From: a virus
Lineage: Duplodnaviria > Heunggongvirae > Uroviricota > Caudoviricetes
Length of the DNA: 18,423 nt
IMG/VR virus record: IMGVR_UViG_2667527959_000011
Coordinates: 1-18,423 of that record
Direction: 5' to 3' (one strand)
Position 1 is the first letter of the stretch, and every line of letters begins with the position of its first letter. This document shows positions 1 to 18,144 of this stretch, piece by piece. Below the pieces are notes generated by a model. That model saw nothing but the letters and a program-made list of their open reading frames with translations, was not told where the DNA came from and made no database searches. The position numbers and the translations under genes were made by a program.

Positions 1-100
1 AGAAATGAAATGACTGAGTCAGCCGAGAAGAATTTCCCCGCTTATTCGCACCTTCCTTAGGTAAAGTTATTTTTAAGTAATCGAGCAACTTTCAGCCCTC

Positions 101-589
101 TCAAAATGGAATATCGTCTTCAAAGTCCATTGGAAGTTCGCTATTGGCGTTGCTCTGAGGTTTACCGCCACCGCTGTATTGCTGGTGGTTTTGAGGTTGG
201 TTTGACTGCCCCCAGCCATTTGAGAATTGTGAATCGTCGCGGCGAGCGCCGATCATTTGCATGGTGCCGCCCTGGCTGACGATAATTTCCGTCGTGTAAC
301 GTTCTACACCGGCGTCATCTGTCCACTTACGGGTTTTAAGTTTCCCTTCGATGTAGACCTGAGAACCTTTTCGTAAATATTCACTCGCAATTTCAGCAAT
401 TTTTCCGAACAAAATGACTTTATGCCATTCTGTTTGCTCTTTCTGTTTGCCTGTTTGCTTGTCGCGCCATGATTCATTCGTTGCGATGCTGAGTCTTCCG
501 ACTGCTCCGCCATTTGGTATATACCTGATATCTGGGTCTTGTCCCAGGGTACCAATCAGGATGACTTTGTTTACACCGCGTTGTGCCAC
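101..589 (-). CDS. ssb: Single-stranded DNA-binding protein (phage SSB)
   Basis: 162-aa ORF closely resembling E. coli SSB: N-terminal OB-fold block ([22 protein letters not shown]), Gly/Gln-rich linker and acidic C-terminal tail DFEDDIPF. Start codon is GTG at 587-589. Confidence 0.93.
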
Positions 590-608
590 TTTTCTTACCC
601 AACAGAAT

Positions 609-625
609 AAATTAATTAGAGCAAT
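609..625 (-). promoter_or_regulatory. C1 repressor operator-like site just upstream of ssb
   Basis: Minus strand reads ATTGCTCTAATTAATTT, 16/17 match to the P1 C1 operator consensus ATTGCTCTAATAAATTT (consensus recalled from the literature). Lies about 20 bp upstream of the ssb GTG. Confidence 0.55.
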
Positions 626-758
626 AATGTATATCTTTGAAACGTGGTTAACAAGTGATTTGCATTATCCTGTGCCTTCTAAAGGGATCGAGTCAGTCGG
701 TAATGGCTGTGAATGGGTGTTTGTCCTGGAGCGTAAAAAATTCGCTTATGAGGTCTTT

Positions 759-1316
759 ATGAAGGGAAAAACAGCCGCAGGAGGCGGTGCAATTTGCGCT
801 ATCGCGGTGATGATTACCATCGTGATGGGTAATAGCAATGTGCGAACCAACCAGGCGGGGCTTGAGCTTATCGGAAACGCTGAAGGTTGCCGACGTGATC
901 CATACATGTGCCCGGCGGGGGTATGGACTGACGGGATCGGTAATACACACGGGGTAACGCAAGGCGTGCGAAAAACCGACCAGCAAATCGCCGCTGATTG
1001 GGAAAAGAATATCCTGATCGCTGAACGCTGTATTAATCAGCACTTCCGGGGAAAAGACATGCCCGATAATGCCTTCAGCGCAATGACAAGCGCGGCATTC
1101 AATATGGGATGCAATAGTTTACGGGCCTACTACAGCAAAGCGCGAGGCATGCGAGTCGAAACGTCCATCCACAAGTGGGCGCAGAAAGGGGAATGGGTGA
1201 ATATGTGTAACCATCTCCCTGATTTTGTGAACAGTAACGGCGTCCCCCTGCCTGGGTTAAAGATTCGCCGTGAAAAAGAACGCCAGCTTTGCCTGACGGG
1301 GCTGGTCAATGAATAA
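759..1316 (+). CDS. lyz: SAR endolysin (T4-lysozyme-like, P1 Lyz-type)
   Basis: 185-aa product starting MKGKTAAGGGAICAIAVMITIVMG: a Gly/Ala-rich signal-anchor-release segment followed by a lysozyme catalytic region (ELIGNAEGCRRDPY...GVWTDGIGNTHG) with Cys13/Cys44/Cys51 as in P1 Lyz. GAGG lies 5 nt upstream of the ATG. The ORF-track 300-aa version (414..1316) is an upstream extension that overlaps ssb on the other strand. Confidence 0.92.
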   Translation: MKGKTAAGGGAICAIAVMITIVMGNSNVRTNQAGLELIGNAEGCRRDPYMCPAGVWTDGIGNTHGVTQGVRKTDQQIAADWEKNILIAERCINQHFRGKDMPDNAFSAMTSAAFNMGCNSLRAYYSKARGMRVETSIHKWAQKGEWVNMCNHLPDFVNSNGVPLPGLKIRREKERQLCLTGLVNE

Positions 1317-1563
1317 ACTCCGGCAGCTCCGCCGACTTTCGACAATGAAGTTATCGCTGGCGGCGATAGTTTTCGACTCGATTTTCATGGCGGTATATGT
1401 GCTCAATGAGACGTGGCCACTGGAACCGCTCTTGTATGCTGGGCTTAGGCTGTGCCTGACATTTTTGAGCATGGCTGCAAGATTGATGCAGCAGAAAGAA
1501 ACCGCTTCAGATTGTCCACGCCGCGCGGTGCGCAAATATATGGCACGCAGGCGAAGGCGATAA
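1309..1563 (+). CDS. Hypothetical small membrane protein, possibly holin-like
   Basis: 84-aa ORF whose ATG overlaps the lyz stop (caATGAAtaa). Two hydrophobic stretches and an Arg-rich C-terminus (ARRRRR). An intrinsic terminator follows directly, suggesting co-transcription with lyz. Confidence 0.35.
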   Translation: MNKLRQLRRLSTMKLSLAAIVFDSIFMAVYVLNETWPLEPLLYAGLRLCLTFLSMAARLMQQKETASDCPRRAVRKYMARRRRR

Positions 1564-1576
1564 TAGTTAACGAGAA

Positions 1577-1602
1577 CCCCGGCAGCCGCCGGGGCTATTT
1601 TT
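1577..1602 (+). terminator. Rho-independent terminator after the lyz operon
   Basis: GC-rich hairpin CCCCGGC-agcc-GCCGGGG (1577-1594) followed by ctaTTTTT. Confidence 0.7.
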
Positions 1603-1607
1603 GATGG

Positions 1608-2627
1608 TTATTTAAACGGGTTGATTGAATTATTAAACGTGATGATGCTTGTCTCACGCGGTGCCTTGACGTTAGCCGCTTGCGGAACCTCCTTAATTTT
1701 CTTGGTGACAGGCAAGTTGCGCGCGCCAACTTTGATCAGAGATTCGAAAAGTGTGGCAACGATTTTTGCATCACCAGGTTCTTTGAGGCGGAATGCGTCT
1801 TTTTGGGCGGCGGAGACGAAGATCGGGAGGTTATCCAGTTCGTCTTGCATCGCTGCCAGCACATCATCGCGGATACCCGCTGTTTCCTCCAGCAAAGCAA
1901 TTCGCGCTTCAGCATCTGCGATCTTGGCCATTGCTTCGAGGTGGCGGCCCTGGCTTTCGAGTAGTGCGGTTTCCAGTTCTGCCGTACGCTCTGTCGCCTC
2001 CACCATCATTTCCAGTTCAGCCATTTTGCCATAATGGGATATAACGGCCTGCACTGACTCGTCGGAGTACCCATGCGCCGCCAGGGATTCTGCCAGTAGA
2101 GATTTAGAATCCGCGCTTTCAAACATTCCGGCGCTGGCAGGATGATCCAGACTGATATAGTTCGGCGTTGTCACATAATCCACACCATGGAAGCTGGTGG
2201 TTACAGCGATTTTCCCGGACTCGCGCCCGCCAGTGGCCCAGCTCCAGCCACCAGCACGGCTTTCGATCATCGCGGCGACAATTTTACCCGGCTCTGTGTT
2301 AAGAATTTCCTGTGTATGGGTAACGATGCCGTTGTCGTCAACAGATATAGCCACTGTTCGGCACGCTGGAACATTGTCGATTACGACCGGGCGACCTTCC
2401 ACCATGATTACGCTGGTTTCTGGTACTTCCAGTTTGCCGGTCAGCTGTCGGCGACCGTGACCGTAATAGCCGAAAAGCTCTCCAAGGCGTAAACCTTCCT
2501 GAGTTTCCTTGCTTTCAAGCATGGTCTTAACCGCGCTTAATACATACTGTCGCCCGTTCTGGCGACCTTTTCGAGCATTGCTATAGAGACAAAAGCGGTC
2601 AGTGACCGTTTTCAAAACATCAGTCAT
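1608..2627 (-). CDS. pro: Putative prohead protease / head-processing protein
   Basis: 339-aa ORF with GGAGGG SD 7 nt upstream of the ATG. Assignment is by position relative to prt and darB as in P1; no catalytic motif was verified by eye. Confidence 0.6.
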   Translation of the reverse strand: MTDVLKTVTDRFCLYSNARKGRQNGRQYVLSAVKTMLESKETQEGLRLGELFGYYGHGRRQLTGKLEVPETSVIMVEGRPVVIDNVPACRTVAISVDDNGIVTHTQEILNTEPGKIVAAMIESRAGGWSWATGGRESGKIAVTTSFHGVDYVTTPNYISLDHPASAGMFESADSKSLLAESLAAHGYSDESVQAVISHYGKMAELEMMVEATERTAELETALLESQGRHLEAMAKIADAEARIALLEETAGIRDDVLAAMQDELDNLPIFVSAAQKDAFRLKEPGDAKIVATLFESLIKVGARNLPVTKKIKEVPQAANVKAPRETSIITFNNSINPFK

Positions 2628-2739
2628 TATATTGCCCTCCAGCTACCTTACCTAATGTCTGTTGGTATATTGGCTTTGATAACATTTTCGTCCGTGTATT
2701 CATTTATATACTCATTAGTTTCAATGTATTATATAGAAC

Positions 2740-3872
2740 ATGAAGCGTGCCTATAAATATCGATTCTATCCAACTCCCGAACAAACCGAGCTATTAGCCC
2801 GGACTTTTGGGTGTGTGCGTTTTGTCTATAACAGCCTCCTTCGCTGGCGCACCGATGCGTACTACGCACGCCATGAGAGGGTCGGCTATGCACAAGCCAG
2901 CGCCAAATTAACGGCACTGAAAAAAGAACCAGAATTCGCCTGGCTGAATGACGTTTCCTGCGTCCCCCTCCAGCAGTCTCTGCGCCACCAACAAACGGCT
3001 TTTGCTAACTTTTTCGCCGGGCGTGCTGCATACCCAGTTTTTAAGAGCAAGCGGCATAAACAGGCCGCAGAACTAACTGCCAGCGCATTTAAATACCGTG
3101 ACGGCAAGCTGTGTACATGGCAAAGAGCAAAGAGCCGTTAGATGTTCGCTGGAGCCGTCCGTTGCCGTCTGCTCCATCCACTGTCACTATCACCAGGGAT
3201 GCTGCCGGACGATATTTTGTATCCTGTCTCTGCGAGTTTGAGCCTGTATCACTGCCGATCACCGTTTCCACGGTCGGCATTGATATTGGTTTAAAAGATT
3301 TGTTCGTCACCGATACCGGTTTCAAAACTGGCAATCCTCGACACAACGCTAAATACGCGAAGCGATTAGCAGTGTTACAGCGCAGATTGAGCAAGAAACA
3401 AAAAGGCTCAAAGAACCGCGCCAAAGCACGTTTAAAGGTTGCCCGCCTCCACGCGAGAATAGTCGATTGTCGGATGGATAACCTGCATAAGTTATCCCGC
3501 AAACTGATTAACGAAAACCAAGTTGTTTGCGTCGAATCCCTTAAAGTGAAAAACATGATCCGTAACCCGAAGCTGTCTAAAGCAATAGCTGACGCAGGCT
3601 GGAGCGAACTTGTACGCCAACTCCAGTACAAAGGAGAATGGGGTGGACGTAGCATTGTCGCTATCGACCAGTATTTCCCTTCTTCCAAACGTTGCAGCAG
3701 TTGCGGCTTCACCATGCAAAAAATGCCTCTTAATATTCGTAAATGGCACTGCCCGGAATGTGGCGCAGAGCATGATCGTGATATTAACGCGGCCCGTAAT
3801 ATAAAAGCTGCCGGGCTGGCAGTGTTAGCCCTTGGAGAGTCTGTAATTCCTAAGCCGCTTCATGTGGTTTAG
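2740..3872 (+). pseudogene. tnpB: IS200/IS605-family TnpB (OrfB) RNA-guided nuclease, interrupted by a -1 frameshift near 3102-3141
   Basis: N-terminal fragment (2740..3141) starts MKRAYKYRFYPTPEQ, the typical OrfB N-terminus. C-terminal fragment (3111..3872, frame -1) carries RuvC-I (VGIDIGLKD), RuvC-II (VVCVESLKVKN), a zinc finger (CSSCG...CPECG) and RuvC-III (HDRDINAARNI). No tnpA is adjacent. Confidence 0.8.
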
Positions 3873-3904
3873 GTCGGACTCTGTGAATTGGGAATGTTTG
3901 CCGT

Positions 3905-5635
<1,731 letters not shown>

Positions 5636-5679
5636 TTAATTAGAATAATTCGCATCGTGTTTTAACGGAATTTAACACT

Positions 5680-5689
5680 AGTCACTTGT
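5680..5689 (-). promoter_or_regulatory. Conserved 10-bp motif (ACAAGTGACT on minus strand), candidate late-promoter element upstream of prt
   Basis: Forward AGTCACTTGT is repeated exactly at 15381-15390. In both places the minus strand reads ACAAGTGACT, then 5 bp, then a weak -10-like hexamer (TAAATT or CAGAAT). Confidence 0.3.
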
Positions 5690-5701
5690 TAAGGATTACC
5701 A

Positions 5702-8700
5702 ATGAACAAGCTATCTATGGGGGTGTTTCGCTGTTCAAGTGTCAGCGAAATATTGAAATACATTAGGGCAATAACATCTCACCGAGCGCCGATTAAATAC
5801 GGCGTGGAAAAGGTGGAAGGCAAAAGCTATGACCAACTGCGCCGGGAGGCGAATCAGAAGGCGATAGATTTGCTTAATTCGCTGGTGGACGGCGCGACAC
5901 TGACAGATGAACAGCGCCAGATCCTGGCTGGGTACACCGGTGAAGGCGGCATTGGCGGGTCCGTCTCCGAATATTACACACCAAAGCCGATCGCTGAAGG
6001 TGTCTGGGAGATCATGAAGCTCTACGGCGCGGACGTAGGTAACACTCTGGAACCATCGGCGGGCACCGGCGTTTTTAATGAGACAAAACCGGTTGGTACG
6101 GTGATGACCGCGACTGAGATCAGCAGTGTTTCCGGTCGTATAAACCAGCTGTTACATCCGGAAGACAGCGTACAGATTTCCCCGTTCGAACAACTGGCTG
6201 TAAGCACGCCTAACGATTCATTCGACCATGTTGTGGGTAACGTTCCGTTCGGCGGTCGTGATAACACACGCAACATCGATAAGCCTTACGCAGAAGAAAC
6301 GGATATGGGGTCTTACTTCATGCTCCGCATGCTGGACAAGATAAAGCCAGGCGGATTCATGTGTGTGATTGTGCCGCCGTCCATTGTTTCAGGTTCAAAC
6401 ATGAAGCGGTTGCGTCTGCGCCTATCCCGTAAAGCTGAATTTCTTGGCGCTCACCGCTTGCCTACCGGTACTTTTGACGCAAACGGGACCAGTACGGTCG
6501 TTGACGTGGTGCTGATGCGCAAACATCCGGCGGAGATGGCTGAGAAAATCCCCCTGGTGGATGAAGGCACTCTTGAATCGGCAAATGTGCTTTGGCCAAC
6601 GTTTATTTCTGGCAAGTGGTTTGAAAAGGACGGCCGCCGGTTTGTTCATGGCACCCAGGAGAAGGGATTCCAGGGGCGTATTGAGGTTCGTGCCGACGGG
6701 CAGATTGATAACCAGGCTCTTAAAGCGAAGCTGATTCATCGTTTCGAAAGTCGTATCGACTGGTCTTTGCTCGATATGGCTGAACCGTCACCGACCGCAG
6801 ATGTTGTTGATGAAGGGGAAATGCGCTTGATTAATGGCGTATGGCAAAAATATGCTGGTGGTCGCTGGATTGAAGCTGATGCTGGTAAGGAGCTTAAGAT
6901 TGATGCTGCCAGTTATGGCGCGGATAGCTGGGAGGCTCTTCAGCGTAACCTGACTACAACAGAAGGCCGTCTCGGTATGACATTTACCCAGATGGCAAAT
7001 GTCCGCGATAAGTACACCACATCAATCAGCGACGATATGGTGCAGCTGGTGGACTGGATTAACAGCCAGCCTGAAAAATACCGTGAACGCTTGTATCGTG
7101 GGGCGATGATTGGCCGGATGTTAATTGAATATCAGGATATGAAGGCCGCCGGGCATAGTGCTGAACAAATCGAACAGCAGCGCCTTTCTCTGGTGTCCCG
7201 TTTGCAGGCAGAGATTGACCGTTTTGGTAACCCCGGTCGCGGTCCGATAGCTAAATTATCGGGAAGCGGTGCGCGCGCCTGGTTTGCTTTCCGTGGTGCA
7301 ATTAAGCTGGATGGCACTATTTCTGACGAGCTAACAGGAAAGCTGGTTACGCATGATTCCAGCGCCAGTTATGACTCCACCAGCTATCAGGACACCCTGC
7401 GTTATCTCTATAGCGATCTTACCCGCGATCCAATCCAGCTCGATGATTTCCGCCTTGCGTTTACCGGCGAACTGCCAGCCAGTGATGAAGAGTTGCTTAA
7501 TTTATTGGCCAGCACCCCTGGTATTGCGGTTTCACCGTATGGCGGGATTGTTCCGTTCGCCCGCGCCACCAGCGGCGACATTAACGAGATAGTGGCTCCA
7601 AAACAGGAATTCCTTGCCACACTCCCCGACGGTCCAGTAAAGAACAACGTCCTTAATCAGCTGGCAGCGATCGAAGAGAAGCGCATCAAGACGCCAGCAG
7701 AGAATATCCGCTTTAAGCTCAATAGCCGTTGGTTCGACCGCTCCGTCATTCTGGAGTTTTTGCAGGAAAACGGCTATCCGGATCTGCGCTATGTGCAGTC
7801 AGTGCAGCTGGAAGGCGACGAAATGGTTTCTGACACCTATCACGGTGGTGATGGTCTGTTCGTCGGGCACCGATACGGTGTCGTCCAGCGCAAGGATAAA
7901 GAAACAGGCGAGATCCGCTACGAGTGGGACCGTAAATCAGGTGAAAACGCGACTGGGTTCCCGGCACAGCTGGAAAAGTATCTCAATGGTGCGCGTATCG
8001 GTGGCAAAGATAGCGCGACGGCGAACGGCTACCGCGAGCAGATGGCACTGCTTGAGGACCAGTTCAATAAGTGGATCAAGACGCACGATCGCTACGATGA
8101 GCTGGTTGCCAAATACAACGATGTGTTCAATAGCAATATCCCGTATGAACACTCTGGCGATCCGCTTGTGTTGAAGGGATTAAGCGGTAAGCGCCAGCCA
8201 TTTGATTACCAGAATAGCGAGGTGCGCCGACTGTCCGAAGATGGGCGCGGCATCCTGGGCTTCGGCACCGGGCTGGGTAAAACCACGACCGCGCTGGCGC
8301 TTGAGGCGTTCAACTATGAGAACGGTCGCTCTACCCGTACTGCGTATGTAGTGCCTAAATCAGTGCTGGAAAATTGGTATTACGAAGCAAAAGAATTCCT
8401 GAGTGAAGAGGCATTCAGTAACTACCTGTTCGTCGGTCTTGATGTGCTGATGGATGGCGATCAGATTCGCCAGGTGCCGGTGCTCGATGAGAACGGTAAA
8501 CCTGTTCTTGGTACTGATGGCACTCCAGTTATGCGCGATGCTCTTAAGCTGGCAGATGAAGCCACTATCACGGCGCGGATGAACGCGATCCCGCACTCAA
8601 ATTACCGTGCAGTCGTGTTTACCAAAGAACAATACGCCCGCATTCCGCTACGTGATGACACCGTAGATGAGCATGCACAGGATATGCTTTATGACTTCGT

Positions 8701-11700
8701 TGCCGCCGGGCGCGTAGCCAGTGCAATGGATTCCGATTCCCATCGCAAAGAGGCGGCGCGTCGCCGGGTATTGTCGGAGTATTCAGATACCGGTACCGAA
8801 AAAGCAGAGAAGTATCCGTACTTTGAGGATATGGGCTTCGACAGCGTGATCGCCGACGAAGGCCACAACTACCGCAATAGCTATAAAAATGGTCGCGAAG
8901 CGTCACAGCTGGCCTATCTGCCCACCAGCGCGGTAGCGCAATCGGCGCGAGATATGGCAATCAAAAACGCGTACCTGATGAAAAAGAATGGCGGGCGCGG
9001 ACCGGTTCTCCTGACTGCAACGCCAGTCGTTAACACCCCGATCGATGCATACAACATGCTTTCTCATGTTCTGCCGAAGGAATACTGGCAGAAGATGGGG
9101 ATCTACGGTCCTGATGACTTCGTTAAACTCTTCGGCAAGACCAGGCTGGAAACGGTACAGAAAATCAGCGGTGAAGTTGAAGAAAAAATGGCGCTGGTGG
9201 GCTTTGAAAACCTTGATGCGCTGCGCGGCATATTCCATCGCTGGACAACGCTTAAAACGGCGGAAGACGTTAAGGATACCGTGGAGATCCCGGAGCTTGA
9301 CGAACACCAGCAGGATGCACCACTTACTGAAGAACAACTGGCGGCGTATGAAGAATTACGCCAGCAGGCGGAAGCGGCGGCCAAAGCCAACAATGGCGTA
9401 ACGACCTCGATCGATGAAGACGGAGTGATTGAGCACGAGAAAGCCCGTCCGATCTTCTCAATAATCAGGGATATGGACCGCGTATGTACTGACATGGACC
9501 TGTACTATCGCCGGATCACCTATCGTTTCCTGCCGGAGTACGCCGATGCGGTGCAGCAGCTGGCGGACAGTTTGCCTAAACAAGCCACCAGCGAAGACGA
9601 CGACAGTGATGATTCAATCACGCAGCAATCGCAATACTCCCTGATAGATAAGGGCGAGTTTATTCAGTTGCAGGTTCCGGAAGCGTTCGAGCAGGAAGTG
9701 AATAAGCGCCTGGCCAGGTTTGGCATTGACGAACAGACCGTAACTCACCCCGTTACGCCCAAATACGCGAAGCTGATTGCCACGCTGAAGGAGTTTTTCC
9801 CGGAAGGGAAGCAAATCATCTTCACCGACGAAAAAACGCAGCACCAGAAGCTCAAGCGCATTATCTGCAATGCTCTTAACCTTGAACCTTCAAAGGTAGG
9901 GATCCTGAATGCTCAGACGGTTGCCGAGGCAGGTAAAACCGGTAAGAAACTGAAAGCGGTTAAACCGCCGAAAGAGTTACCGGATGAACCAACAGATGCA
10001 CAGATAGCGAAATACAACGAGCAAATGGCTCTGTATGACGCCTATATCGCGCAGCAAAATGAAATGTCGTTGGGCGGTCTGGAAAAGATTGCAGCCGACT
10101 TCCAGGAGGGCCGGACTCCGATCATCATCTGCAACAAAAAGGCAGAGGTGGGTATCAACCTGCATCGAGGAACGACTGACATCCATCATCTGACGTTGCC
10201 ATGGACACCAGCCAGTATCGCACAGCGTAACGGTCGCGGTGCTCGAGTTGGCTCCAACCGTGCAAGCGTTCGCGTTCACTACTACTGCGGCAAGGGGTCT
10301 TTCGATGAATACCGATTGAAGACGCTGAAGCGTAAAGCAGGCTGGATCTCCGATATCCTCCGTTCAGATAAGTCGGAAATGGAGAACGCCGACGCCAATG
10401 ACATGATCGAAATGCAGATGTATACCGCGAAGGATGACGGCGAACGTCTGGCAATGATGCAGGTTCAAATGGATAAGGCGAAAGCTGCGAAACGCGCTCG
10501 CCAGAAAGAACAGGCTACTATCGACCTTCAGAATTACATCAAGGCGCAGCACGCAGCTGGCGAGGATGTGGAGGTACTTACCGCTGAATTAGAGCGAAGC
10601 AAAGCGGAACTTGAAAAGACCACCGCCGAGGTAGCTAAATTCAAACAGGCGGTAATGGCCAAAGCAGCTGATAACGCAGACTGGAAAGCCCGCTGGGGTA
10701 GCGTCCATCACACAGACCGTACGTTGTTAGCACAGTATCGCGCGTCGTTGAAAAGCGCCATTCAGCGCAAGGCTAATATCTCTCAGGCCATCTCCCGCTA
10801 TGAGAAATTATTGAACCGTACTCAGAAGGCCGCGACGGATATCAAACGCCTGCGCCCGCTGGTGGAGGATGCAATAAATAAAGGCATTCTGGATGTTGAT
10901 CCTGATCTGGTTAACCATGCGAATGAGTTCCTTGTTATCGGCGATCGCTCATGGCGTGTAGGCCAATACTACGATTGTGCCGGTGATATCGTTCGCATTA
11001 AGTCGCTGGACTTCGACAGCCAGCGCGCAGACGTGGAGATCATCTTTACCTTAAGAGGCACCAAATCGGGTAACTGGGATGTGAAGACGCTGGATAAACA
11101 GGTTGATGTAACTCCCGATGAAGATGCTGTTATGCAGAAAATCAGTGGTGGCGTCTCCATCGCCGGGATTAACGACATCATTTCCTGTGACGATTTCTAC
11201 CGTTTCCAGCAGCGCGGCATGATCAAAATCACTGACTCGTACGGCGTTCAGACTACAGAGTCAGGCTATAGCATTGATTTTGTTGGTACCTATACGGACC
11301 CACTGAAGCATGCGGTTTACCCGGATCGCCGTGACGGCGCGCTGAAGTCGTCAATTGCAAAATGGGTGCTTGGTATGATGTCGGAAGGGAATAACCGCCA
11401 GATCCGTTCGGCAGAAACATTCCTGGTTGAATTGTTTGGCTCCAATTATGGCGATGTAATCGCGTCATACGGAGATACGCTATCCCCTGAAGCAATTCAG
11501 GAGAAAATAGCGGATGCGATCGCCAGAATGCCGGAAAAAACAAGCCAGGGGTCTACTCGTAACGGGGATTCTGAACTTGAAGTCACCAATGCCATTTTCG
11601 GTACCAATGAGTTCCGGGCGTCAGATTATGAGATCACCACAGCACAGTTTGGCACCATTGGCATTTACAGCAATAAAGACGAGATCAAGCAGGCAATGGA

Positions 11701-12469
11701 CGCAGCAAGTGCGCGCATTGCAGCAGAACGGAAAGCCAATCTGAATCATGCAGTCGCCGCGCTGACTCAATCGTGGGTAACAGCAATCAGGGAGGCCGCC
11801 ACCACAGGAAAAATCACACCGGCAATTGCGGATGTCGTAAACGACGGCTCTAAATTTATGGATGCCTATAAAATGGATGCGGTGCAGTTGCCATCAGCCT
11901 ATGGCCAACTCAGCTATCGCATGACCTACAACCTGGTATCAATGTTTACTGACCTTGCCATCCTTGGGCTGGTGGACCTTAACGAGGTTACGCCGGAATT
12001 ACTCAGCATGCGCAAGAATCATGTTGAGATATTGCAGAGAATTAACACGGTTCTTGCCGGGCGCACCGATGAAGAGAAACAGGCCGACGCTGATCGGATA
12101 AACCTGGCCCTAGGCAACATCACGGAGGAAGAAATTGCCGCCAGAAACGAGAAACAAGAAGAGTTATCATCAATACAGGGTGATGCCACCAGCATAGCTC
12201 AGTCTCTTGGGCTGAATTATCGCGTATCCACCGCCGACCTGAAGATGATGTACGCACCAAAATTCGCCGCTGGCGAGGTATTTGGGCTTCAGGAAGCCTC
12301 CGGCATGAAAGGGGTTCTTTTCCGTGCGAAAGACGCAATCAAGGCGAAATTCGGCGCTCGCTGGTTGCCAGCGAAGGCGAAGAACAGCGATTTCCCGGGT
12401 AACTGGTGGATTATCGAGACAAAACACAACGTGGCGGACGTTCTGGCCGTCATCCAACAATACGCATAA
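5702..12469 (+). CDS. darB: DarB-like anti-restriction protein (N6-adenine methyltransferase fused to a superfamily-2 helicase)
   Basis: 2255-aa ORF. Methyltransferase motif I LEPSAGTGVF (~6050) and NVPFG (NPPF-like) motif; helicase Walker A GFGTGLGKTTTAL (~8260), DEGH box VIADEGHNY (~8850) and motif VI QRNGRGARVG (~10230). Size and architecture match P1 DarB as I recall it. Confidence 0.88.
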   Translation: MNKLSMGVFRCSSVSEILKYIRAITSHRAPIKYGVEKVEGKSYDQLRREANQKAIDLLNSLVDGATLTDEQRQILAGYTGEGGIGGSVSEYYTPKPIAEGVWEIMKLYGADVGNTLEPSAGTGVFNETKPVGTVMTATEISSVSGRINQLLHPEDSVQISPFEQLAVSTPNDSFDHVVGNVPFGGRDNTRNIDKPYAEETDMGSYFMLRMLDKIKPGGFMCVIVPPSIVSGSNMKRLRLRLSRKAEFLGAHRLPTGTFDANGTSTVVDVVLMRKHPAEMAEKIPLVDEGTLESANVLWPTFISGKWFEKDGRRFVHGTQEKGFQGRIEVRADGQIDNQALKAKLIHRFESRIDWSLLDMAEPSPTADVVDEGEMRLINGVWQKYAGGRWIEADAGKELKIDAASYGADSWEALQRNLTTTEGRLGMTFTQMANVRDKYTTSISDDMVQLVDWINSQPEKYRERLYRGAMIGRMLIEYQDMKAAGHSAEQIEQQRLSLVSRLQAEIDRFGNPGRGPIAKLSGSGARAWFAFRGAIKLDGTISDELTGKLVTHDSSASYDSTSYQDTLRYLYSDLTRDPIQLDDFRLAFTGELPASDEELLNLLASTPGIAVSPYGGIVPFARATSGDINEIVAPKQEFLATLPDGPVKNNVLNQLAAIEEKRIKTPAENIRFKLNSRWFDRSVILEFLQENGYPDLRYVQSVQLEGDEMVSDTYHGGDGLFVGHRYGVVQRKDKETGEIRYEWDRKSGENATGFPAQLEKYLNGARIGGKDSATANGYREQMALLEDQFNKWIKTHDRYDELVAKYNDVFNSNIPYEHSGDPLVLKGLSGKRQPFDYQNSEVRRLSEDGRGILGFGTGLGKTTTALALEAFNYENGRSTRTAYVVPKSVLENWYYEAKEFLSEEAFSNYLFVGLDVLMDGDQIRQVPVLDENGKPVLGTDGTPVMRDALKLADEATITARMNAIPHSNYRAVVFTKEQYARIPLRDDTVDEHAQDMLYDFVAAGRVASAMDSDSHRKEAARRRVLSEYSDTGTEKAEKYPYFEDMGFDSVIADEGHNYRNSYKNGREASQLAYLPTSAVAQSARDMAIKNAYLMKKNGGRGPVLLTATPVVNTPIDAYNMLSHVLPKEYWQKMGIYGPDDFVKLFGKTRLETVQKISGEVEEKMALVGFENLDALRGIFHRWTTLKTAEDVKDTVEIPELDEHQQDAPLTEEQLAAYEELRQQAEAAAKANNGVTTSIDEDGVIEHEKARPIFSIIRDMDRVCTDMDLYYRRITYRFLPEYADAVQQLADSLPKQATSEDDDSDDSITQQSQYSLIDKGEFIQLQVPEAFEQEVNKRLARFGIDEQTVTHPVTPKYAKLIATLKEFFPEGKQIIFTDEKTQHQKLKRIICNALNLEPSKVGILNAQTVAEAGKTGKKLKAVKPPKELPDEPTDAQIAKYNEQMALYDAYIAQQNEMSLGGLEKIAADFQEGRTPIIICNKKAEVGINLHRGTTDIHHLTLPWTPASIAQRNGRGARVGSNRASVRVHYYCGKGSFDEYRLKTLKRKAGWISDILRSDKSEMENADANDMIEMQMYTAKDDGERLAMMQVQMDKAKAAKRARQKEQATIDLQNYIKAQHAAGEDVEVLTAELERSKAELEKTTAEVAKFKQAVMAKAADNADWKARWGSVHHTDRTLLAQYRASLKSAIQRKANISQAISRYEKLLNRTQKAATDIKRLRPLVEDAINKGILDVDPDLVNHANEFLVIGDRSWRVGQYYDCAGDIVRIKSLDFDSQRADVEIIFTLRGTKSGNWDVKTLDKQVDVTPDEDAVMQKISGGVSIAGINDIISCDDFYRFQQRGMIKITDSYGVQTTESGYSIDFVGTYTDPLKHAVYPDRRDGALKSSIAKWVLGMMSEGNNRQIRSAETFLVELFGSNYGDVIASYGDTLSPEAIQEKIADAIARMPEKTSQGSTRNGDSELEVTNAIFGTNEFRASDYEITTAQFGTIGIYSNKDEIKQAMDAASARIAAERKANLNHAVAALTQSWVTAIREAATTGKITPAIADVVNDGSKFMDAYKMDAVQLPSAYGQLSYRMTYNLVSMFTDLAILGLVDLNEVTPELLSMRKNHVEILQRINTVLAGRTDEEKQADADRINLALGNITEEEIAARNEKQEELSSIQGDATSIAQSLGLNYRVSTADLKMMYAPKFAAGEVFGLQEASGMKGVLFRAKDAIKAKFGARWLPAKAKNSDFPGNWWIIETKHNVADVLAVIQQYA

Positions 12470-12502
12470 CAGGAGCGCCCGGTTCGCCGGGCGTCGCATA
12501 AT

Positions 12503-12943
12503 ATGGCCACATTATCTGATACAATAAAACCGAATAAAACATATCTTGAGGCGGTGCTGCGTACGGCGTTGTTAGGAAAGACAGAAGACGAATACGTTGA
12601 TTTCTTCCTGTCAGGGCTACGCGGGCGATTACTGAAAAATCCCCGCCTGTACCGCAGTTATGGCCCATACTGGCCGGAAATTAAAAAATTATTACTGGAG
12701 CGCGGTTATGGTAATTTCGGTCGTCTCGTTGACCGTGACGTTCGCAAAATTTACCGTTATGACCGCCCGGCGCTGACACTCATAGCCGCGACGCTCTACA
12801 GCCAGGAGCGTTTTGATAATGGTCAGATATACTCAGCCTGGCATTTACTGCCAGTGCCTGAAGAAGTTGACGACCAGGACTATGAGTTTGAGTCTTACGA
12901 TTTGGAAGTTGAAGCCTTGGCACAGGCTGGAGAGAAAACTTGA
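12503..12943 (+). CDS. Hypothetical protein, possible Ulx homolog
   Basis: 146-aa ORF immediately downstream of darB; its stop overlaps the start of the next ORF (cTTGA). Assignment by synteny only. Confidence 0.45.
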   Translation: MATLSDTIKPNKTYLEAVLRTALLGKTEDEYVDFFLSGLRGRLLKNPRLYRSYGPYWPEIKKLLLERGYGNFGRLVDRDVRKIYRYDRPALTLIAATLYSQERFDNGQIYSAWHLLPVPEEVDDQDYEFESYDLEVEALAQAGEKT

Positions 12944-13188
12944 AAAAGCGATACTACACAGTAAAGCATGGGACGCTACGAGCATTACAAGAGTTTGCTG
13001 ACAAGCATAACGTTGAGGTGCGCAGGGAAGGGGGAAGTAAAGCTCTGCGTATGTACCGTCCGGATGGGAAATGGCGAACGGTCGTCGATTTCAAAACTAA
13101 CAGCGTTCCCCAGGGCGTCCGTGACCGGGCATTCGAAGAATGGGAGCAGATCATCATAGATAACGCATTGCTCCTGAATGCTGATTAA
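12940..13188 (+). CDS. lxc: Lxc-like small protein (C1 co-repressor)
   Basis: 82-aa ORF with TTG start overlapping the upstream stop and GGAG 8 nt upstream. Size and position match P1 lxc. Confidence 0.5.
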   Translation: MKKRYYTVKHGTLRALQEFADKHNVEVRREGGSKALRMYRPDGKWRTVVDFKTNSVPQGVRDRAFEEWEQIIIDNALLLNAD

Positions 13189-13225
13189 TTTATCGGGCAG
13201 TTTTATCTGCCCGATAAATTTTTAT
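13187..13225. terminator. Hairpin terminator between convergent lxc and the SIR2-like gene
   Basis: Perfect 14-bp inverted repeat AATTTATCGGGCAG (13187-13200) / CTGCCCGATAAATT (13207-13220) with 6-nt loop, then a T-run. Arm 1 overlaps the lxc stop codon. Confidence 0.65.
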
Positions 13226-13234
13226 CGACCACAA

Positions 13235-14542
13235 TTACACTATATTCTTAACTATAAGGTTGGCGTCCTTCAAGGTGCCTAATGTTTCAATGTGGTTTTT
13301 TATCATTAATCTATTTGAGGCAATTATTGCAGGCCATCGTGTTTCCCAAGCTCTGTAAGCATACCAAGAAACTCCCCAATTCCTTTCTTTACTCATATGA
13401 CCCATCGAGTATTCAACTGCGTCTAAATATGTTTTTTCATACTTAGTATTGCTAACCTCTATGATGCTTCCAAAATATATAAGCCATTTTGCCAACTGTT
13501 CATATTGCTCCCACGCTCCGTTATTCCTTGTTAACTTTCTCTTTTTTTCTATTATCCTTTCGAAAAGAGAAACGACTTTATCATCATTCCAATCTAAACC
13601 TTCCGATATAATTGATGATATAATTTGATAAAATGAATCCTCTAATTTAAGATATTCATTTTTATAAGTATAAGCCCCCGAAACAACTTTTCTGATATTT
13701 TCGCGCGCTCTTTCAATGATGTCTTTAATGAGAGATATCTTATAACTTAATCGACTAAAGAAACAATCTATTTCTGTATTGTCAATTACCCTTATACCAA
13801 AGCAATAGAAGTAATAATCCTTCATATCTTGACTTACTTTGTTGCGAGATATCAAAAAGATATTAGAGCACAGGGCATTATTTTTCGAAAATTTTTTATA
13901 GTCATTTATAATTGCTTTAAGATTTGTGTCGCTTAAAGAATACCCTAATATCGCAACTGTATTTTCATGCAGCATCGTACTAAGTTTTCGTGAAAAATAA
14001 GTATCGGAATTTATAAATCTGAAGTAATCATCTGAAGTGACAATCATATTTTTTGGCGAATCAATAGAGCCATGAACATGATATATTTTCACCTTGGATG
14101 GATACTTTGGAATTGGCAGGCCGGGCGTGATAGACTGTACACTTTCATCTCCAACCAAGCATTCAGCCAACTTGTCATAATTTGTTGTAATGACACGGAA
14201 TGAGTTTTTTTGGAAAAAATCTTTTATATTTGATATGTCTTCTCCAAGTTGAATTGGAGATATGATGTCAACAATTTCATCATAAATCGACTTACCCTCA
14301 ATATTGAGCTTCAAAGATAGTATTTGTGCGGCTTCTTCAAGACTCAGTGCTGGTGGTTTATCATCAGGGAATAACGTGTCTTCCAACTTTTTGGCATTGT
14401 GAACTTTGCTGCAAACTTTTTTTAATAGTTCCTTCCACGTTGGAGCTTCACCGTTCGAGACTGCCTTTGAAAAGCCAGTCCCGGTAAATAGACAAAGCCT
14501 GCTTGTAGCGGCAGCGTATGCTAACTCAACATATTCGCTCAT
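13235..14542 (-). CDS. SIR2-like (SIR2_2/DUF4020-type) protein, candidate NAD+-depleting defence effector
   Basis: 435-aa ORF with GGAG SD 8 nt upstream of the ATG. Motifs: LFTGTGFS...APTWKELL near the N-terminus, VITTNYDKL, KIYHVHGS, MIVTSDDY and VAILGYSLSD. No CxxC...CxxC zinc ribbon. About 180 C-terminal residues have no recognisable motif. Gene is markedly AT-rich compared with its flanks. Confidence 0.8.
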   Translation of the reverse strand: MSEYVELAYAAATSRLCLFTGTGFSKAVSNGEAPTWKELLKKVCSKVHNAKKLEDTLFPDDKPPALSLEEAAQILSLKLNIEGKSIYDEIVDIISPIQLGEDISNIKDFFQKNSFRVITTNYDKLAECLVGDESVQSITPGLPIPKYPSKVKIYHVHGSIDSPKNMIVTSDDYFRFINSDTYFSRKLSTMLHENTVAILGYSLSDTNLKAIINDYKKFSKNNALCSNIFLISRNKVSQDMKDYYFYCFGIRVIDNTEIDCFFSRLSYKISLIKDIIERARENIRKVVSGAYTYKNEYLKLEDSFYQIISSIISEGLDWNDDKVVSLFERIIEKKRKLTRNNGAWEQYEQLAKWLIYFGSIIEVSNTKYEKTYLDAVEYSMGHMSKERNWGVSWYAYRAWETRWPAIIASNRLMIKNHIETLGTLKDANLIVKNIV

Positions 14543-14597
14543 TACTTACTCCATTTACTTATAGTTCTATGGAGAAGTATACCCTAATGCATTGACG

Positions 14598-14625
14598 TTT
14601 ATAGATAATTTCCTTTTCCAGTTAA
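14598..14625 (-). promoter_or_regulatory. Candidate sigma70 promoter for the SIR2-like gene
   Basis: On the minus strand: TTAACT, 16-bp spacer, TATAAA. The -10 overlaps the stop codon of the upstream mat-like gene. Confidence 0.3.
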
Positions 14626-15240
14626 CTCCCCTTTAGGCACCCGTTTTTGTGCCAGTGTTTGGGTTCCGCGAATTATGTTAATCAGAGGGCTTAGTAACGA
14701 TGATTCCTGGCGGGCATCAACTTCTCCTGCCATTGCCCTAATGTAGTCGGCGCTTGCAACGTTGTTATATTCCGTTGCGAAGCAGCATAACAACGTCAGA
14801 ACGTGCTCTGTCGTTATTTCGCTCCAGTTGATGTTGAAAAATTCATCGCCTTTTTTGTCATGTTCGGAATCGAAGATGCTTTGGTGAAGGATGTATTTGC
14901 CGGATTCCTTGCGCGGTAACTTGATCGCTTTCTGGCGTTCCAATTCCTTGTAAATCTGCATCGCTTCAATCAGTACCGGTCTGCCGTTCATGAAGGGATC
15001 ACGCAACCTTACACGCTGGCCAACTCGACCGGTAATAAAGCTGTTTTCCTCTTCCACCAGCACGATAAAACCCTTTTCCTCTTTTTCTCGCAATTCGCGC
15101 AGCAGCTGGAGTTCCATATCGCGGCGGCGTTCAGGGTAGCTGGTCCGCTCAGCCATTATCAGCTCATTGTTGATCCATGCGGCAGTCATTGACGCCGGTT
15201 TGCCGACGCTCATCGAAACAACGCATATTTTCTTATCCAT
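14599..15240 (-). CDS. Hypothetical protein, possible Mat homolog
   Basis: 213 aa from the ATG at 15240. The ORF track extends it to a GTG at 15267, which would place a terminator-like hairpin inside the coding region. Assignment by position between ref and the res-mod slot. Confidence 0.45.
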   Translation of the reverse strand: MDKKICVVSMSVGKPASMTAAWINNELIMAERTSYPERRRDMELQLLRELREKEEKGFIVLVEEENSFITGRVGQRVRLRDPFMNGRPVLIEAMQIYKELERQKAIKLPRKESGKYILHQSIFDSEHDKKGDEFFNINWSEITTEHVLTLLCCFATEYNNVASADYIRAMAGEVDARQESSLLSPLINIIRGTQTLAQKRVPKGELTGKGNYL

Positions 15241-15250
15241 AGCGCCCCTA

Positions 15251-15278
15251 CAAAAAAGAAAAGCCACCAGCGGCGGCT
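15251..15278 (-). terminator. Terminator-like hairpin plus U-tract in the leader of the mat-like gene
   Basis: Minus strand reads AGCCGCC-gct-GGUGGCU (one G-U pair) followed by UUUUCUUUUUU, ending about 10 nt before the ATG at 15240. Confidence 0.4.
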
Positions 15279-15380
15279 TAGCAATACAACTGAAGGTAGC
15301 GCCCGGTACTCAGACTGTGCCGTCCATGGAATATTTGAAAAGGGATCCATCCGTACCGGGCGTGTGATGATTCTGACTGA

Positions 15381-15390
15381 AGTCACTTGT
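15381..15390 (-). promoter_or_regulatory. Second copy of the 10-bp ACAAGTGACT motif, upstream of the mat-like gene
   Basis: Exact repeat of the 5680-5689 motif. An upstream TTGACA (minus strand) is present and a 10-bp inverted repeat (15300-15309 / 15353-15362) lies downstream in the leader. Confidence 0.3.
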
Positions 15391-15428
15391 CAGTTGTCAA
15401 TCATTTATCATTAAAAATAATATATTTA

Positions 15429-15991
15429 TTAGTGCATGATGTTTGCCATCTCATAGGCGTCAGCCAGTAACTCCATCTCTGACTTGTTCAGTAGGGTGAA
15501 TTCTTTCTTGCCTCCAACCACACCATCGGCATGAACAGGGACCAGCCAGGGGTATTTTGCTCTTACTTCAGTCGGTGCTGCATGCTGGTGGTGCCATCTC
15601 TACAAAGTGGCAATTGCTTTTTATGACAACCCGGCGCGGTACGACCGGCGATATGGTGCAGAGACACCTCATTAGATATTACTCCATGCATATAGCAGGC
15701 AATGCAGGGGAGAGTGCCAAGAGCATTGGCGATGCGCCGTTCCTCCGCCGTTGGTGTTCTCCCCTTCAAGCCACGAGATTTTATTTTTACCGCGCTTTTC
15801 CGCGTTTTGCTGGCTGGTGGGCGCTCTTTCTGTTTAGCGATACGGCGGTCGATAGTATCCCGCATTTTCTGATATTGAGATTCTCGCCAGACCGGATCAG
15901 CCAACTTCTCCCGTTGCCGAGCGATCGCTCGTTCTCTGGCTGCCTTCTGCCACTTGCGGCACTGTTCAATTTTTTGTTCGATTGTTTTCAT
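15429..15991 (-). pseudogene. ref: Ref (HNH-type recombination enhancement endonuclease) with a frameshift
   Basis: N-terminal 131 codons (MKTIEQKIEQ...LPLCR) are in one frame; the remaining 55 codons (WHHQHAAPTEV...ANIMH, stop at 15429-15431) are open in the -1 frame. The break falls in the minus-strand run TGTAGAGATGG (forward ~15597-15603). Removing two bases restores a 186-aa product. Confidence 0.8.
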
Positions 15992-15997
15992 ATGGTC

Positions 15998-16024
15998 AAA
16001 AAAAAGGCGGCCTAATAGCCGCCT
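15998..16024 (-). terminator. Intrinsic terminator 6 nt upstream of the ref start codon
   Basis: Minus strand reads AGGCGGC-uauuag-GCCGCCU followed by seven U (forward A-run 15998-16004), then gacc and the ATG. Confidence 0.6.
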
Positions 16025-16083
16025 ATGATGTCAAGGAGTGAAGTAATGGCAACGTCTTCGTAGTTGACAAAAACTGCGACTCA

Positions 16084-16107
16084 ATTATAGCAACCAATTA
16101 GAGCAAT
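16084..16107 (-). promoter_or_regulatory. C1 operator(s) overlapping the presumptive ref promoter
   Basis: Minus strand reads ATTGCTCTAATTGGTTGCTATAATTGA. The first 11 bp match the operator consensus, a second TTGCTATAAT half-site overlaps, and a perfect TATAAT -10 is at forward 16084-16089. Confidence 0.55.
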
Positions 16108-16212
16108 TAAAGTTGTTTATTTATCGCGAATCACATTTTTTCACTTCAGTACCTGTGTGCTATACTCCTTCTTGATTGATTGGATGCGGAATACAAACCC
16201 GCTCTTTTGTGC

Positions 16213-16244
16213 AGCCTGGCTCCTTGCCAGGCTTTTTTTTATTT
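16213..16244 (+). terminator. Plus-strand intrinsic terminator overlapping the cra stop codon
   Basis: AGCCTGGC-tcctt-GCCAGGCT followed by a run of T ending at 16240. On the minus strand no U-tract follows, so it is directional. Confidence 0.6.
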
Positions 16245-16550
16245 CATCATGGAAGCTGTTAACGCTTTGGACCTTGCTGAACTGATTGAGAGGGCTTTGT
16301 CAACGTGCCCCAAAAATTCGCCAAACTCAGACATCACTTTAGCAAAACCGCGCCGTGCTTCTTCCTCGGTGGCATTCATCACGAAATGTTCAGCACCACG
16401 CATACTTTTGACAGGGAACGCAACGGATATTGAATCAATATCAGGCATTCTATCGCTCAGCTTTACAGTGACAATGACGGCTGGCGACTGAATATTAGTG
16501 CTTACAGACAGCACTACATATTTTCCGTCGATGTTGAAATCCTTTCGCAT
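16239..16550 (-). CDS. Hypothetical protein downstream of cre, possible Cra
   Basis: 103-aa ORF of balanced composition between cre and ref. The overlapping plus-strand ORF (16180..16491) runs through the terminator hairpin and is considered spurious. Confidence 0.45.
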   Translation of the reverse strand: MRKDFNIDGKYVVLSVSTNIQSPAVIVTVKLSDRMPDIDSISVAFPVKSMRGAEHFVMNATEEEARRGFAKVMSEFGEFLGHVDKALSISSARSKALTASMMK

Positions 16551-16566
16551 ATGTCACCATAAATAT

Positions 16567-16583
16567 CAAAGAATTAGAGCAAT
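16567..16583 (-). promoter_or_regulatory. C1 operator-like site between cre and the downstream ORF
   Basis: Minus strand reads ATTGCTCTAATTCTTTG, 13/17 overall with the first 11 bp matching the consensus. Confidence 0.5.
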
Positions 16584-16600
16584 CATTTACGCGTTAATGG

Positions 16601-17632: not shown

Positions 17633-17639
17633 TTAACAC

Positions 17640-17861
17640 TCAGATAATGGTTTTAAGTAAAGTGTACAGGATCGGCTCTGCCTTTACCTGTTTATGGTTC
17701 TCGTCATAGAAACGCCAACGACCGCGACTGCGTTCTATCTTTTCTTCACCGCGCGATAATGACAGTTGACAACTATCACGATCAAACCCTTTTGCCCGCC
17801 AGTAACCACGATTTTTCTCAAGCTCAAGATGAGTGGACACTTTAGCAGCTGAATATCCCAT
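17640..17861 (-). CDS. Hypothetical 73-aa upstream ORF in the cre leader
   Basis: AGGTG SD 4 nt upstream of the ATG. Its stop (TGA, 17640-17642) lies 7 nt before the cre ATG, which has no strong SD of its own. Confidence 0.35.
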   Translation of the reverse strand: MGYSAAKVSTHLELEKNRGYWRAKGFDRDSCQLSLSRGEEKIERSRGRWRFYDENHKQVKAEPILYTLLKTII

Positions 17862-17957
17862 TTTTCACCTCTGATTGATTGGTGGTGCTAAGTGCGCTAC
17901 GCGAAATCTGTAGGACTGACACCGCCAATTTTTCACAGATTTTACGTAGCGCAACCT

Positions 17958-17979
17958 TGATCAAATGATCAAGTGATCA
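17958..17979. promoter_or_regulatory. Triple TGATCA (Dam GATC) cluster in the cre promoter region
   Basis: Three TGATCA hexamers at 8-bp spacing (GATC at 17959, 17967, 17975), about 330 bp upstream of cre. Confidence 0.5.
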
Positions 17980-18050
17980 CTATTTGACCTGCCAAGGTAT
18001 TGAACTGTATGGATTTACAGGTAAATTGATCATATTCAATAACCCTTAAT

Positions 18051-18084
18051 ATAACTTCGTATAATGTATGCTATACGAAGTTAT
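18051..18084 (+). other. loxP: loxP recombination site
   Basis: Exact ATAACTTCGTATA-ATGTATGC-TATACGAAGTTAT: 13-bp inverted arms around the canonical 8-bp spacer. Confidence 0.98.
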
Positions 18085-18127
18085 TAGGTCTGAAGAGGAG
18101 TTTACGTCCAGCTGCGCATAAAAATCA

Positions 18128-18144
18128 AGAATTATTAGAGCAAT
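18128..18144 (-). promoter_or_regulatory. C1 operator-like site
   Basis: Minus strand reads ATTGCTCTAATAATTCT (14/17). The forward strand here also partly matches the consensus, so the site is partly palindromic. Confidence 0.5.

Follow-up and report, generated by a model that had tools for sequence, protein, structure and literature searches.

A tnpB-only IS200/IS605-family element with an inherited frameshift at the prt/pro junction of a P1-like phage-plasmid

The insertion between prt and pro

The stretch of DNA analysed here (the window) comprises 18,423 nucleotides (nt) of a Caudoviricetes virus, positions 1 to 18,423 of the IMG/VR record IMGVR_UViG_2667527959_000011. It is a segment of a P1-like phage-plasmid. 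Between two genes read on the minus strand, the head-processing gene pro (1608-2627) and the putative portal gene prt (3905-5626), lies an element at 2628-3924 whose tnpB gene, on the plus strand, is broken into two open reading frames (ORFs). The flanks of the element are 97-98% identical to P1, P7 and RCS47, and the junction holds 1,297 bases more than that of P1. Alignment to the empty P1 site shows an insertion of 1,297 bp without target-site duplication. The element is a non-autonomous, tnpB-only member of the IS200/IS605 family, of the IS1341 type. Such elements are of a known kind, and RefSeq already annotates them in dozens of plasmids. Added here are the exact ends, the nature and heritability of the lesion in tnpB, an intact guide RNA that would match empty P1 junctions, a decayed left end, and the translation signals donated to the neighbouring genes. 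The copy in this window is mostly a dead passenger. That the locus as a whole is explained by an IS1341-type, tnpB-only insertion, frameshifted in this copy, is held with high confidence.

The insertion point is situated 3′ of the pentamer GTCAT (2623-2627, plus strand), the flank on the side of the target-adjacent motif (TAM). Its complement, ATGAC, consists of the pro start codon and two further nucleotides, and the insertion falls precisely between this start codon and the native pro Shine-Dalgarno site. The empty site in P1 reads CAGTCAT/TATCGTTTCC, the slash marking the insertion point, and the junction sequence runs CAGTCAT TATCGTTTCCC. When the window flanks are rejoined, the exact P1 sequence CAGTCAT/TATCG is obtained. 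In P1 and the element-free genomes, the prt stop and the pro start overlap (ATGACTGA). Alignment alone leaves an ambiguity of 3 nt in the ends, which was resolved because relatives share a fixed right end, GTCAA, and the left flank TCAT. Indeed, among Enterobacterales and other Gammaproteobacteria, the last right-end bases of about 45 independent relatives are GTCAA (rarely GCCAA), and the right flank beyond them differs from copy to copy; the left flank ends in TCAT at the sites of all 27 TCAT-type relatives. The empty site of E. coli K-12 between ybhB and bioA, TTTCAT/GAACCCTCC, gives the same boundary rule for a chromosomal copy. The conserved right end, the TCAT rule and the K-12 empty site therefore place the element at 2628-3924. 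Insertion 3′ of a short target without target duplication is typical of IS200/IS605 elements. Here, a short conserved 3′-insertion target is found, with neither terminal inverted repeats nor a target-site duplication.

No Y1 transposase gene (tnpA) was detected in the whole window by tblastn with IS200 TnpA, and none adjoining any gammaproteobacterial relative. An adjacent Y1 transposase was seen only in three distant relatives with 37-41% identity, from Paenibacillus, a member of the Bacteroidaceae and an archaeon. The left boundary lies only 112 nt upstream of the tnpB ATG, and the element lacks an internal tnpA, as expected of the IS1341 type. P1, P7 and SJ46 have an uninterrupted prt/pro junction. 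Among 492 P1-like records from E. coli, the junction is empty in about 448 and filled in about 39-44 (about 8-9%). An earlier note on this stretch had proposed a tnpB-only IS200/IS605-type insertion with no adjacent tnpA and had advised a comparison with P1-like genomes lacking it; the comparison upholds the proposal. The ends given at the time (2640-3904) need correction to 2628-3924. The right end was thought to abut the prt stop; the prt stop codon (3905-3907) in fact lies inside it, as the right end extends 20 nt into the prt frame.

An ancestral presence of the gene at this position in P1-like genomes, followed by its loss from P1 and P7, is hardly credible. All carriers share the position and have no second copy elsewhere, as such an origin would predict. 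However, the element-free genomes have the intact coupled overlap ATGACTGA without a scar, the GTCAA end and the TCAT rule are as at more than 25 unrelated loci, and the ratio of empty to filled sites is about 10:1.

The insertion has changed the signals of both neighbouring genes. The right end supplies prt with a new C-terminal tail and stop codon (3905-3924, minus strand). The protein, 573 amino acids (aa) long in the window and 569 aa in P1, now ends in GNDIDNCPP, with a new six-residue tail, versus GNDND in P1. At the left end, the plus-strand hexamer CCCTCC (2635-2640) gives GGAGGG on the minus strand, 7 nt before the pro ATG. It is a replacement for the native pro Shine-Dalgarno sequence (GAGGG), which is now beyond the far side of the element, and is presumably used for pro translation. 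Translational coupling of prt and pro is abolished, and 1.3 kb of antisense tnpB stands between them. Since the late promoter annotated in P1, LPpro, is located upstream of prt, both genes are taken to be co-transcribed, and pro is now 1.3 kb farther from this promoter. The suspicion that the insertion separates pro from the prt promoter was thus well founded. A scan gave a sigma-70-like site on the pro strand at 2757-2728 (10/12) and eight terminator-like sites on the pro strand, where about two were expected over the whole region and both strands. For the host genes, the loss of coupling, the tail, the Shine-Dalgarno sequence and the promoter- and terminator-like sites are leads rather than evidence.

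The other genes of the window include ssb (101-589, minus strand), a lysozyme gene listed between ssb and pro, and darB (5702-12469, plus strand).

An inherited frameshift in tnpB

Both tnpB ORFs are on the strand opposite to pro and prt. The 5′ part (2740-3141, plus strand, 133 aa) covers the helix-turn-helix and REC-WED region and matches Pfam HTH_OrfB_IS605 (E 5e-22); it is in frame to 3109 and then reaches a stop codon at 3139-3141. The 3′ part (3111-3872, plus strand, 253 aa) is in another frame and unjoined to the first. It matches OrfB_IS605 (E 2e-25) and Cas12f1-like_TNB (E 5e-24), and the matches on both fragments exceed the curated cut-offs. All three residues of the RuvC triad are present, namely D181 (3282-3284), E265 (3534-3536) and D347 (3780-3782), and so are the cysteines C318, C321, C337 and C340 of a CxxC...CxxC zinc ribbon. 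These residues align with their ISDra2 positions and lie downstream of the frameshift. The earlier note had recognised the TnpB-type ORF, with its RuvC motifs and zinc finger, correctly.

The near-identical copy on plasmid p50579417_1 encodes an uninterrupted protein of 376 aa, annotated in RefSeq as RNA-guided endonuclease InsQ/TnpB. TnpB is collinear over its full length with the ISDra2 TnpB structures 8EXA and 8H1J (E 7e-77, residues 3-365). Its aa identity amounts to 83.8% with GipA of Gifsy-1, 85.6% with the E. coli ybhB/bioA copy and 86.7% with a Citrobacter plasmid copy, and synonymous and non-synonymous codon differences from these relatives stand at about 2:1.

A domesticated TnpB of the TldR type, which needs loss of RuvC catalytic residues or a C-terminal truncation, was ruled out by the intact triad. 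TldR proteins are nuclease-dead, TnpB-derived prophage repressors (PMC10705468). Like the P1 element, they are phage-borne relatives of TnpB with a guide RNA and without a transposase. In contrast to it, they have lost the RuvC residues, and for the P1 element no target beyond the empty site is evident.

The frame is broken by a duplication of the dinucleotide TG (TGTG, 3110-3113, plus strand), as revealed by alignment with near-identical copies. Positions 3108-3115 read CTGTGTAC in the window versus CTGTAC in near-identical relatives, and the frame passes from phase 1 to phase 0, which corresponds to a -1/+2 shift. Removal of the TG gives a protein of 376 aa identical to WP_001312284.1, the common intact allele. 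All near-identical copies compared are 2 nt shorter, and those aligned read TG. The other differences from these relatives are synonymous substitutions at 2940, 3323 and 3494 and one change in the right-end hairpin at 3908.

The duplication recurs in independent material. An exact-protein look-up found the 133-aa truncated product deposited as 'Helix-turn-helix domain [Escherichia coli]' on 123 contigs, and it is indexed in 197 collection blocks. Six independent assemblies from different samples carry the identical 1,297-bp element, including TGTG and the four single-nucleotide differences. Their contexts vary: upstream of ssb there is an integrase or an insertion sequence (IS), and one assembly has a transposon within prt. 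Because the wider contexts differ, the allele must have persisted through later diversification. It makes up about one tenth of the element-carrying contigs (123 versus 888 + 207 + 31 for the main intact alleles). By megablast, TGTG occurred in no complete record of the phage, plasmid or E. coli genome collections, and an exact 36-mer spanning the duplication had 0 matches in viral_contigs.

In the TGTG assembly with the transposon (L093, 4166-6402), prt comes to an end after 210 codons, and PRiA4_ORF3 and resolvase genes come next. As a phage, this plasmid is probably not viable any more.

The frameshift is an inherited pseudogene allele, not a sequencing error. The earlier note had located a -1 shift near 3102-3141 and left the choice between a recent lesion and a sequencing error; the shift and the lesion of an otherwise intact gene are borne out, whereas the error is excluded by the six assemblies and the 123 contigs. 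An assembly or sequencing artefact in a really intact element would explain why the catalytic residues are intact and why the only three further differences in tnpB are synonymous, as in a live gene with an error, and the record of vB_EcoM-673R5 carries two error-like homopolymer indels. Nevertheless, a dinucleotide duplication is no homopolymer slip, and its recurrence in the assemblies, contigs and index blocks listed above makes an artefact exceedingly improbable.

The record in question, ON470615.2, is the sole record of the phage collection with the element and represents an in-silico phage-like plasmid. Its tnpB contains two single-base homopolymer indels and its prt is split into two coding sequences, both of which look like sequencing errors.

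Programmed frameshifting was rejected, since a slippery heptamer is missing and the intact allele predominates. The tnpB gene is split at codon 124. Judging from its sequence, the lineage most likely retains a tnpB pseudogene and an intact guide-RNA gene, with the nuclease function lost. The annotation is thereby settled: a single tnpB pseudogene accounts for both ORFs, and with the element prt has acquired another 3′ end and pro other translation signals.

Guide RNA, left end and spread among P1-like plasmids

A conserved structured RNA overlaps the 3′ end of tnpB and the right end. For an alignment of 43 distinct relatives, covering the 235 nt up to and including GTCAA, RNAalifold proposed 39 pairs in 8 helices, 19 of the pairs with compensatory double changes. 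Standard pairs are formed in 95.7% of the cells in the named structure versus 36-44% (about 41%) with the partners slid by 1-3 columns, and the covariation score is 0.347 versus 0.07-0.10; 0 of 500 shuffles reach either value. The window keeps 38 of the 39 pairs, and its single-sequence RNA fold has a z-score of -4.15. The scaffold of this guide RNA (omegaRNA) extends over about 3774-3924 (plus strand), with a terminal hairpin at 3895-3916. The hairpin reads GUUUGCC/GGCGGAC in the window versus CCUCGCC/GGCGGGG in the consensus, and its compensatory and G-U changes preserve the RNA helix better than the DNA helix.

By the established rule of the family, the guide consists of the next 16 or so nt of the right flank (PMC10055086). 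The predicted guide of the window is therefore TATCGTTTCCCTCTTT (3925-3940, plus strand), inside the prt coding sequence, its length and use being transferred by analogy with ISDra2 and Geobacillus TnpB. GTCAT followed by TATCGTTTCCCTCTTT is exactly the uninterrupted P1 junction, and the flank is identical in P1. Of the features that define OMEGA systems, the structured RNA followed by a flank-derived guide is present, and an uninterrupted tnpB frame is found in the common allele, not in the window. The guide RNA had been expected across the 3′ end of tnpB and the right end, and folding of this region had been suggested. The fold confirms a scaffold there, but with different limits, about 3774-3924 and a guide at 3925-3940, instead of about 3700-3904.

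A search of 2400-4200 against Rfam matched no curated omegaRNA family. The lone match, to RAGATH-18 (3829-3894), was sub-threshold, with 21.8 bits versus a gathering score of 44.9 (E 0.48). It lies precisely over the inner helices that covary in the omegaRNA, shares the motifs GGAG...GAC...UGAA...GGGAA, and is not evidence alone. RAGATH-18 may be related to TnpB guide RNAs.

The TGTG allele might still provide some active TnpB through rare -1 slippage in the 31-nt overlap of the two frames, through fragments that reassemble, or through a chromosomal TnpB that uses the omegaRNA in trans. The well-kept omegaRNA would suit this idea, slippage by -1 at 3130-3135 would restore a continuous frame at the price of about seven altered residues, and several hundred E. 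coli chromosomes contain related tnpB genes (e.g., the ybhB/bioA copy). We regard it as quite improbable, however. Neither an X XXY YYZ heptamer nor a stimulatory structure is present, the prevalence of the intact allele means that the shift is not programmed, the split lies inside the WED/REC region, and the cross-use of omegaRNA between proteins 85% identical is a conjecture.

The left end (2628-2739, plus strand) consists of 112 nt of AT-rich sequence without the family's subterminal hairpin. Its DNA fold reaches -3.9 kcal/mol (z +0.8). In the Gifsy-1 element, in contrast, the left end forms a hairpin with a perfect stem of 20 bp (-33.8 kcal/mol, z -7.4), similar to the one at its right end. 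A left-end hairpin resembling the right-end one is expected of a TnpA substrate. In the window, the right-end hairpin is kept, partly via G-U pairs, and its counterpart on the left is missing. Beyond the first 13 nt or so, the left end resembles no other left end. Its source was sought by blastn-short against 100 loci and by distant blastn against all E. coli genomes, and nothing was found outside the P1 site. Among 5,426 complete E. coli genomes, no site but that of P1 has the 112-nt left end, and no genome has more than one copy of it; the element (left end plus body at identity of at least 99%) is likewise confined to prt/pro, with a single copy per genome, whereas the wider family occupies many sites. 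Because the left end has lost its hairpin, tnpA is absent and the left end is unique to one site in E. coli, the element can probably no longer transpose. The earlier note had considered a functional element; transposition drops out with the missing left hairpin, and what may function, as far as sequence can tell, is at most the nuclease and guide module of the intact alleles.

Several relatives are multi-copy. Serratia proteamaculans CBSDS_009 (L023, L024, L030, L033) and Klebsiella sp. MISC125 (L015, L017, L021) have three to four family copies each. They sit at different gene starts, and no copy is adjoined by tnpA; their mobilisation must occur in trans. Some element-bearing P1-like plasmids have a further insertion, an IS200C tnpA, that separates the lysis-gene region from pro, for instance p50579417_1 (936-1394 of its locus L004, corresponding to about 1563-1608 of the window); the window is without it. 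It is unlikely that this transposase, which belongs to a different subfamily, acts on the TnpB element.

Comparison with characterised systems places the element more closely. ISDra2 of Deinococcus radiodurans (PDB 8EXA, 8H1J, 8BF8) has the same D-E-D RuvC triad and zinc ribbon, an omegaRNA overlapping the tnpB 3′ end and the right end, a right-flank guide, and a 5-nt TAM 5′ of the left end. In contrast to the P1 element, it possesses tnpA and functional hairpins at both ends, and its TAM is TTGAT versus a GTCAT flank (TCAT in the family) known here from sequence alone. The gipA element of the Salmonella prophage Gifsy-1 (83.8% aa and 79.7% nt identity) is also tnpB-only and phage-borne, lies antisense directly upstream of the start of a morphogenesis gene (gpU) in an operon, and has a GTCAA right end. 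It differs in retaining the left hairpin and an intact gene. GenBank ON470615 applies the ISfinder name ISEc42 to this very element, which shares family and organisation with ISEc42. The ybhB/bioA copy, taken to be ISEc42, is 80.8% identical to the P1 element in nt and 85.6% in aa. If that copy is ISEc42, this identity is below the threshold for the same IS (roughly at least 90% nt or at least 95% aa identity), and the left end is unrelated past the first 13 nt or so. No paper was found that combines P1-like and TnpB, and the papers mentioning ISEc42 merely list it.

About 340 complete E. coli genomes contain an element, tnpB-only and about 81% identical, between bioA and ybhB. It splits a gene pair that is adjacent and co-directional in K-12, and the copy of strain 32F4 is annotated as frameshifted.

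Besides E. coli, the element is found on P1-like plasmids of E. albertii and E. fergusonii, and it is a fixed marker of a minority of these plasmids. Over the 1,295 nt of the element, 4-9 positions separate the element-bearing plasmids compared (the window, p50579417_1 and E. albertii p06-3542). In the flanking pro and prt genes, these plasmids resemble one another no more than they resemble empty-site plasmids. For instance, p50579417_1 has 8 differences in pro and 11 in prt from the empty pMTY1886, and 14 and 23, respectively, from the window. Divergence of the element versus that of the flanks, between the window and p50579417_1, gave a Fisher p of 0.001. This discordance fits spread by homing or recombination across diverged backbones. 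No co-conversion tract beside the element was evident in 200-nt bins of pro and prt.

The phage-plasmid could alternatively have domesticated tnpB, either as a weapon against element-free P1-like plasmids and phages or as a GipA-like regulator or virulence factor. The guide and TAM fit the junction of about 90% of P1-like plasmids, the transposition apparatus is gone while TnpB and omegaRNA are intact in most copies, and the element is found on diverged flanks. Furthermore, the gene of the 84% identical homologue GipA has been reported to be a virulence gene (PMC3627910). On the other side, the element stays at low frequency (about 8-9%), the presence of the frameshift allele on more than 100 contigs indicates that its loss is tolerated, and RuvC is intact, unlike in the known TldR regulators. 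On balance, domestication seems unlikely.

The preferred history is that of a passenger at a single site. At some time in the past, the element would have entered a P1-like phage-plasmid by the usual single-strand mechanism of the family, directly 3′ of GTCAT, where the prt stop and the pro start overlap. Its host would have tolerated the event, as the right end gives Prt a short tail and a stop, and the left end gives pro a GGAGGG. Intact alleles are predicted to encode a complete ISDra2-like RNA-guided nuclease and its omegaRNA. Since the guide is the adjoining prt sequence, the complex would be aimed at the uninterrupted prt/pro junction of element-free P1 relatives. An element-free co-resident plasmid would be cut, and recombinational repair would then copy the element in, i.e., homing. 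With the left-end hairpin lost and tnpA absent, conventional transposition is probably over.

Homing between P1-like plasmids is proposed here by analogy with a mechanism established for TnpB of the IS605 family in Geobacillus (Meers et al., PMC10055086). In both cases, the TAM and right-flank guide recreate the empty site, and the logic is identical: copies without the element are cut by the nuclease and regain it by recombination, as is presumed for P1. The two differ in that the empty site in Geobacillus stems from TnpA excision within one genome. Without TnpA and a left hairpin, the only targets of the P1 element would be element-free P1 relatives that enter the same cell.

Several points weigh against this account. 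Nuclease activity, including TAM and guide use, is ascribed to this TnpB by analogy. Ordinary recombination among P1-like plasmids could give the same discordance of flank and element. A C-terminal product of 251 aa could start at ATG 3117, and a rare -1 slippage is conceivable at GCA AAG (3130-3135). As an in-silico phage-like plasmid, vB_EcoM-673R5 is uninformative on virion viability. Finally, promoter-like sites occur here at chance frequency, including the consensus matches to promoter hexamers that point both ways in the left end (plus strand 2703-2732, minus strand 2757-2728).

Insertion at start codons in the wider family

The position at the pro start codon is shared by relatives elsewhere. 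Left-end junctions were compared in a set made up of loci L003, L006 and L011-L077 and window positions 2623-2640. Of 27 independent TCAT-type insertions, 23 have a flanking CAT at which an ORF of at least 80 codons starts on the opposite strand. Such an ORF is found at only 25% of all TCAT sites in the same loci (binomial p = 9e-11). Annotated examples are P1 pro, E. coli ybhB, Gifsy-1 gpU and Citrobacter trbC. The rebuilt empty sites usually have a native Shine-Dalgarno sequence 4-9 nt upstream. The sites are usually operon-internal, and an upstream co-directional ORF often ends at +4 (ATGA overlap, six cases) or nearby.

The ends of the elements appear suited to such positions. In most TCAT-type copies, the complement of the left end reads GGAGGCATTCTG/ATG or a near variant, and most TCAT-type left ends contain a GGAGG-type motif 6-8 nt before the displaced ATG. 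The complement of the right end begins with TTGAC and regenerates NNT-TGA for an overlapping upstream gene. Relatives with TTAT or TTAC targets have another type of left end; 5 of the 13 (L025, L027, L053, L059, L064) are inserted precisely at the TAA that terminates a long ORF on the opposite strand. There, the TTGAC complement would restore a TGA in that frame. No paper describing insertion adjacent to start codons was found. The pattern may reflect either target choice or the survival of harmless insertions.

We tentatively suggest, leaning slightly towards doubt, that ISEc42/GipA-like elements are adapted to the translational punctuation of operons, the TCAT target being the complement of ATGA and the ends donating GGAGG and TGA, and that the P1 copy is an end-point of this adaptation. 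If so, an antisense insertion at an operon junction would have hardly any effect and could not easily be deleted. In the P1 copy, the transposase hairpin would then have been dropped and the ribosome-binding site kept, and this copy would spread only by RNA-guided homing between P1-like phage-plasmids. Independently of this suggestion, the intact alleles are a simple natural system for the study of TnpB homing between phage-plasmids that share an E. coli cell; the target, the empty P1 junction, exists in about 90% of relatives. The habit of inserting at start codons, together with the donated ribosome-binding site, suggests a way in which a guide-RNA nuclease element may lower its cost to compact phage and operon genomes.

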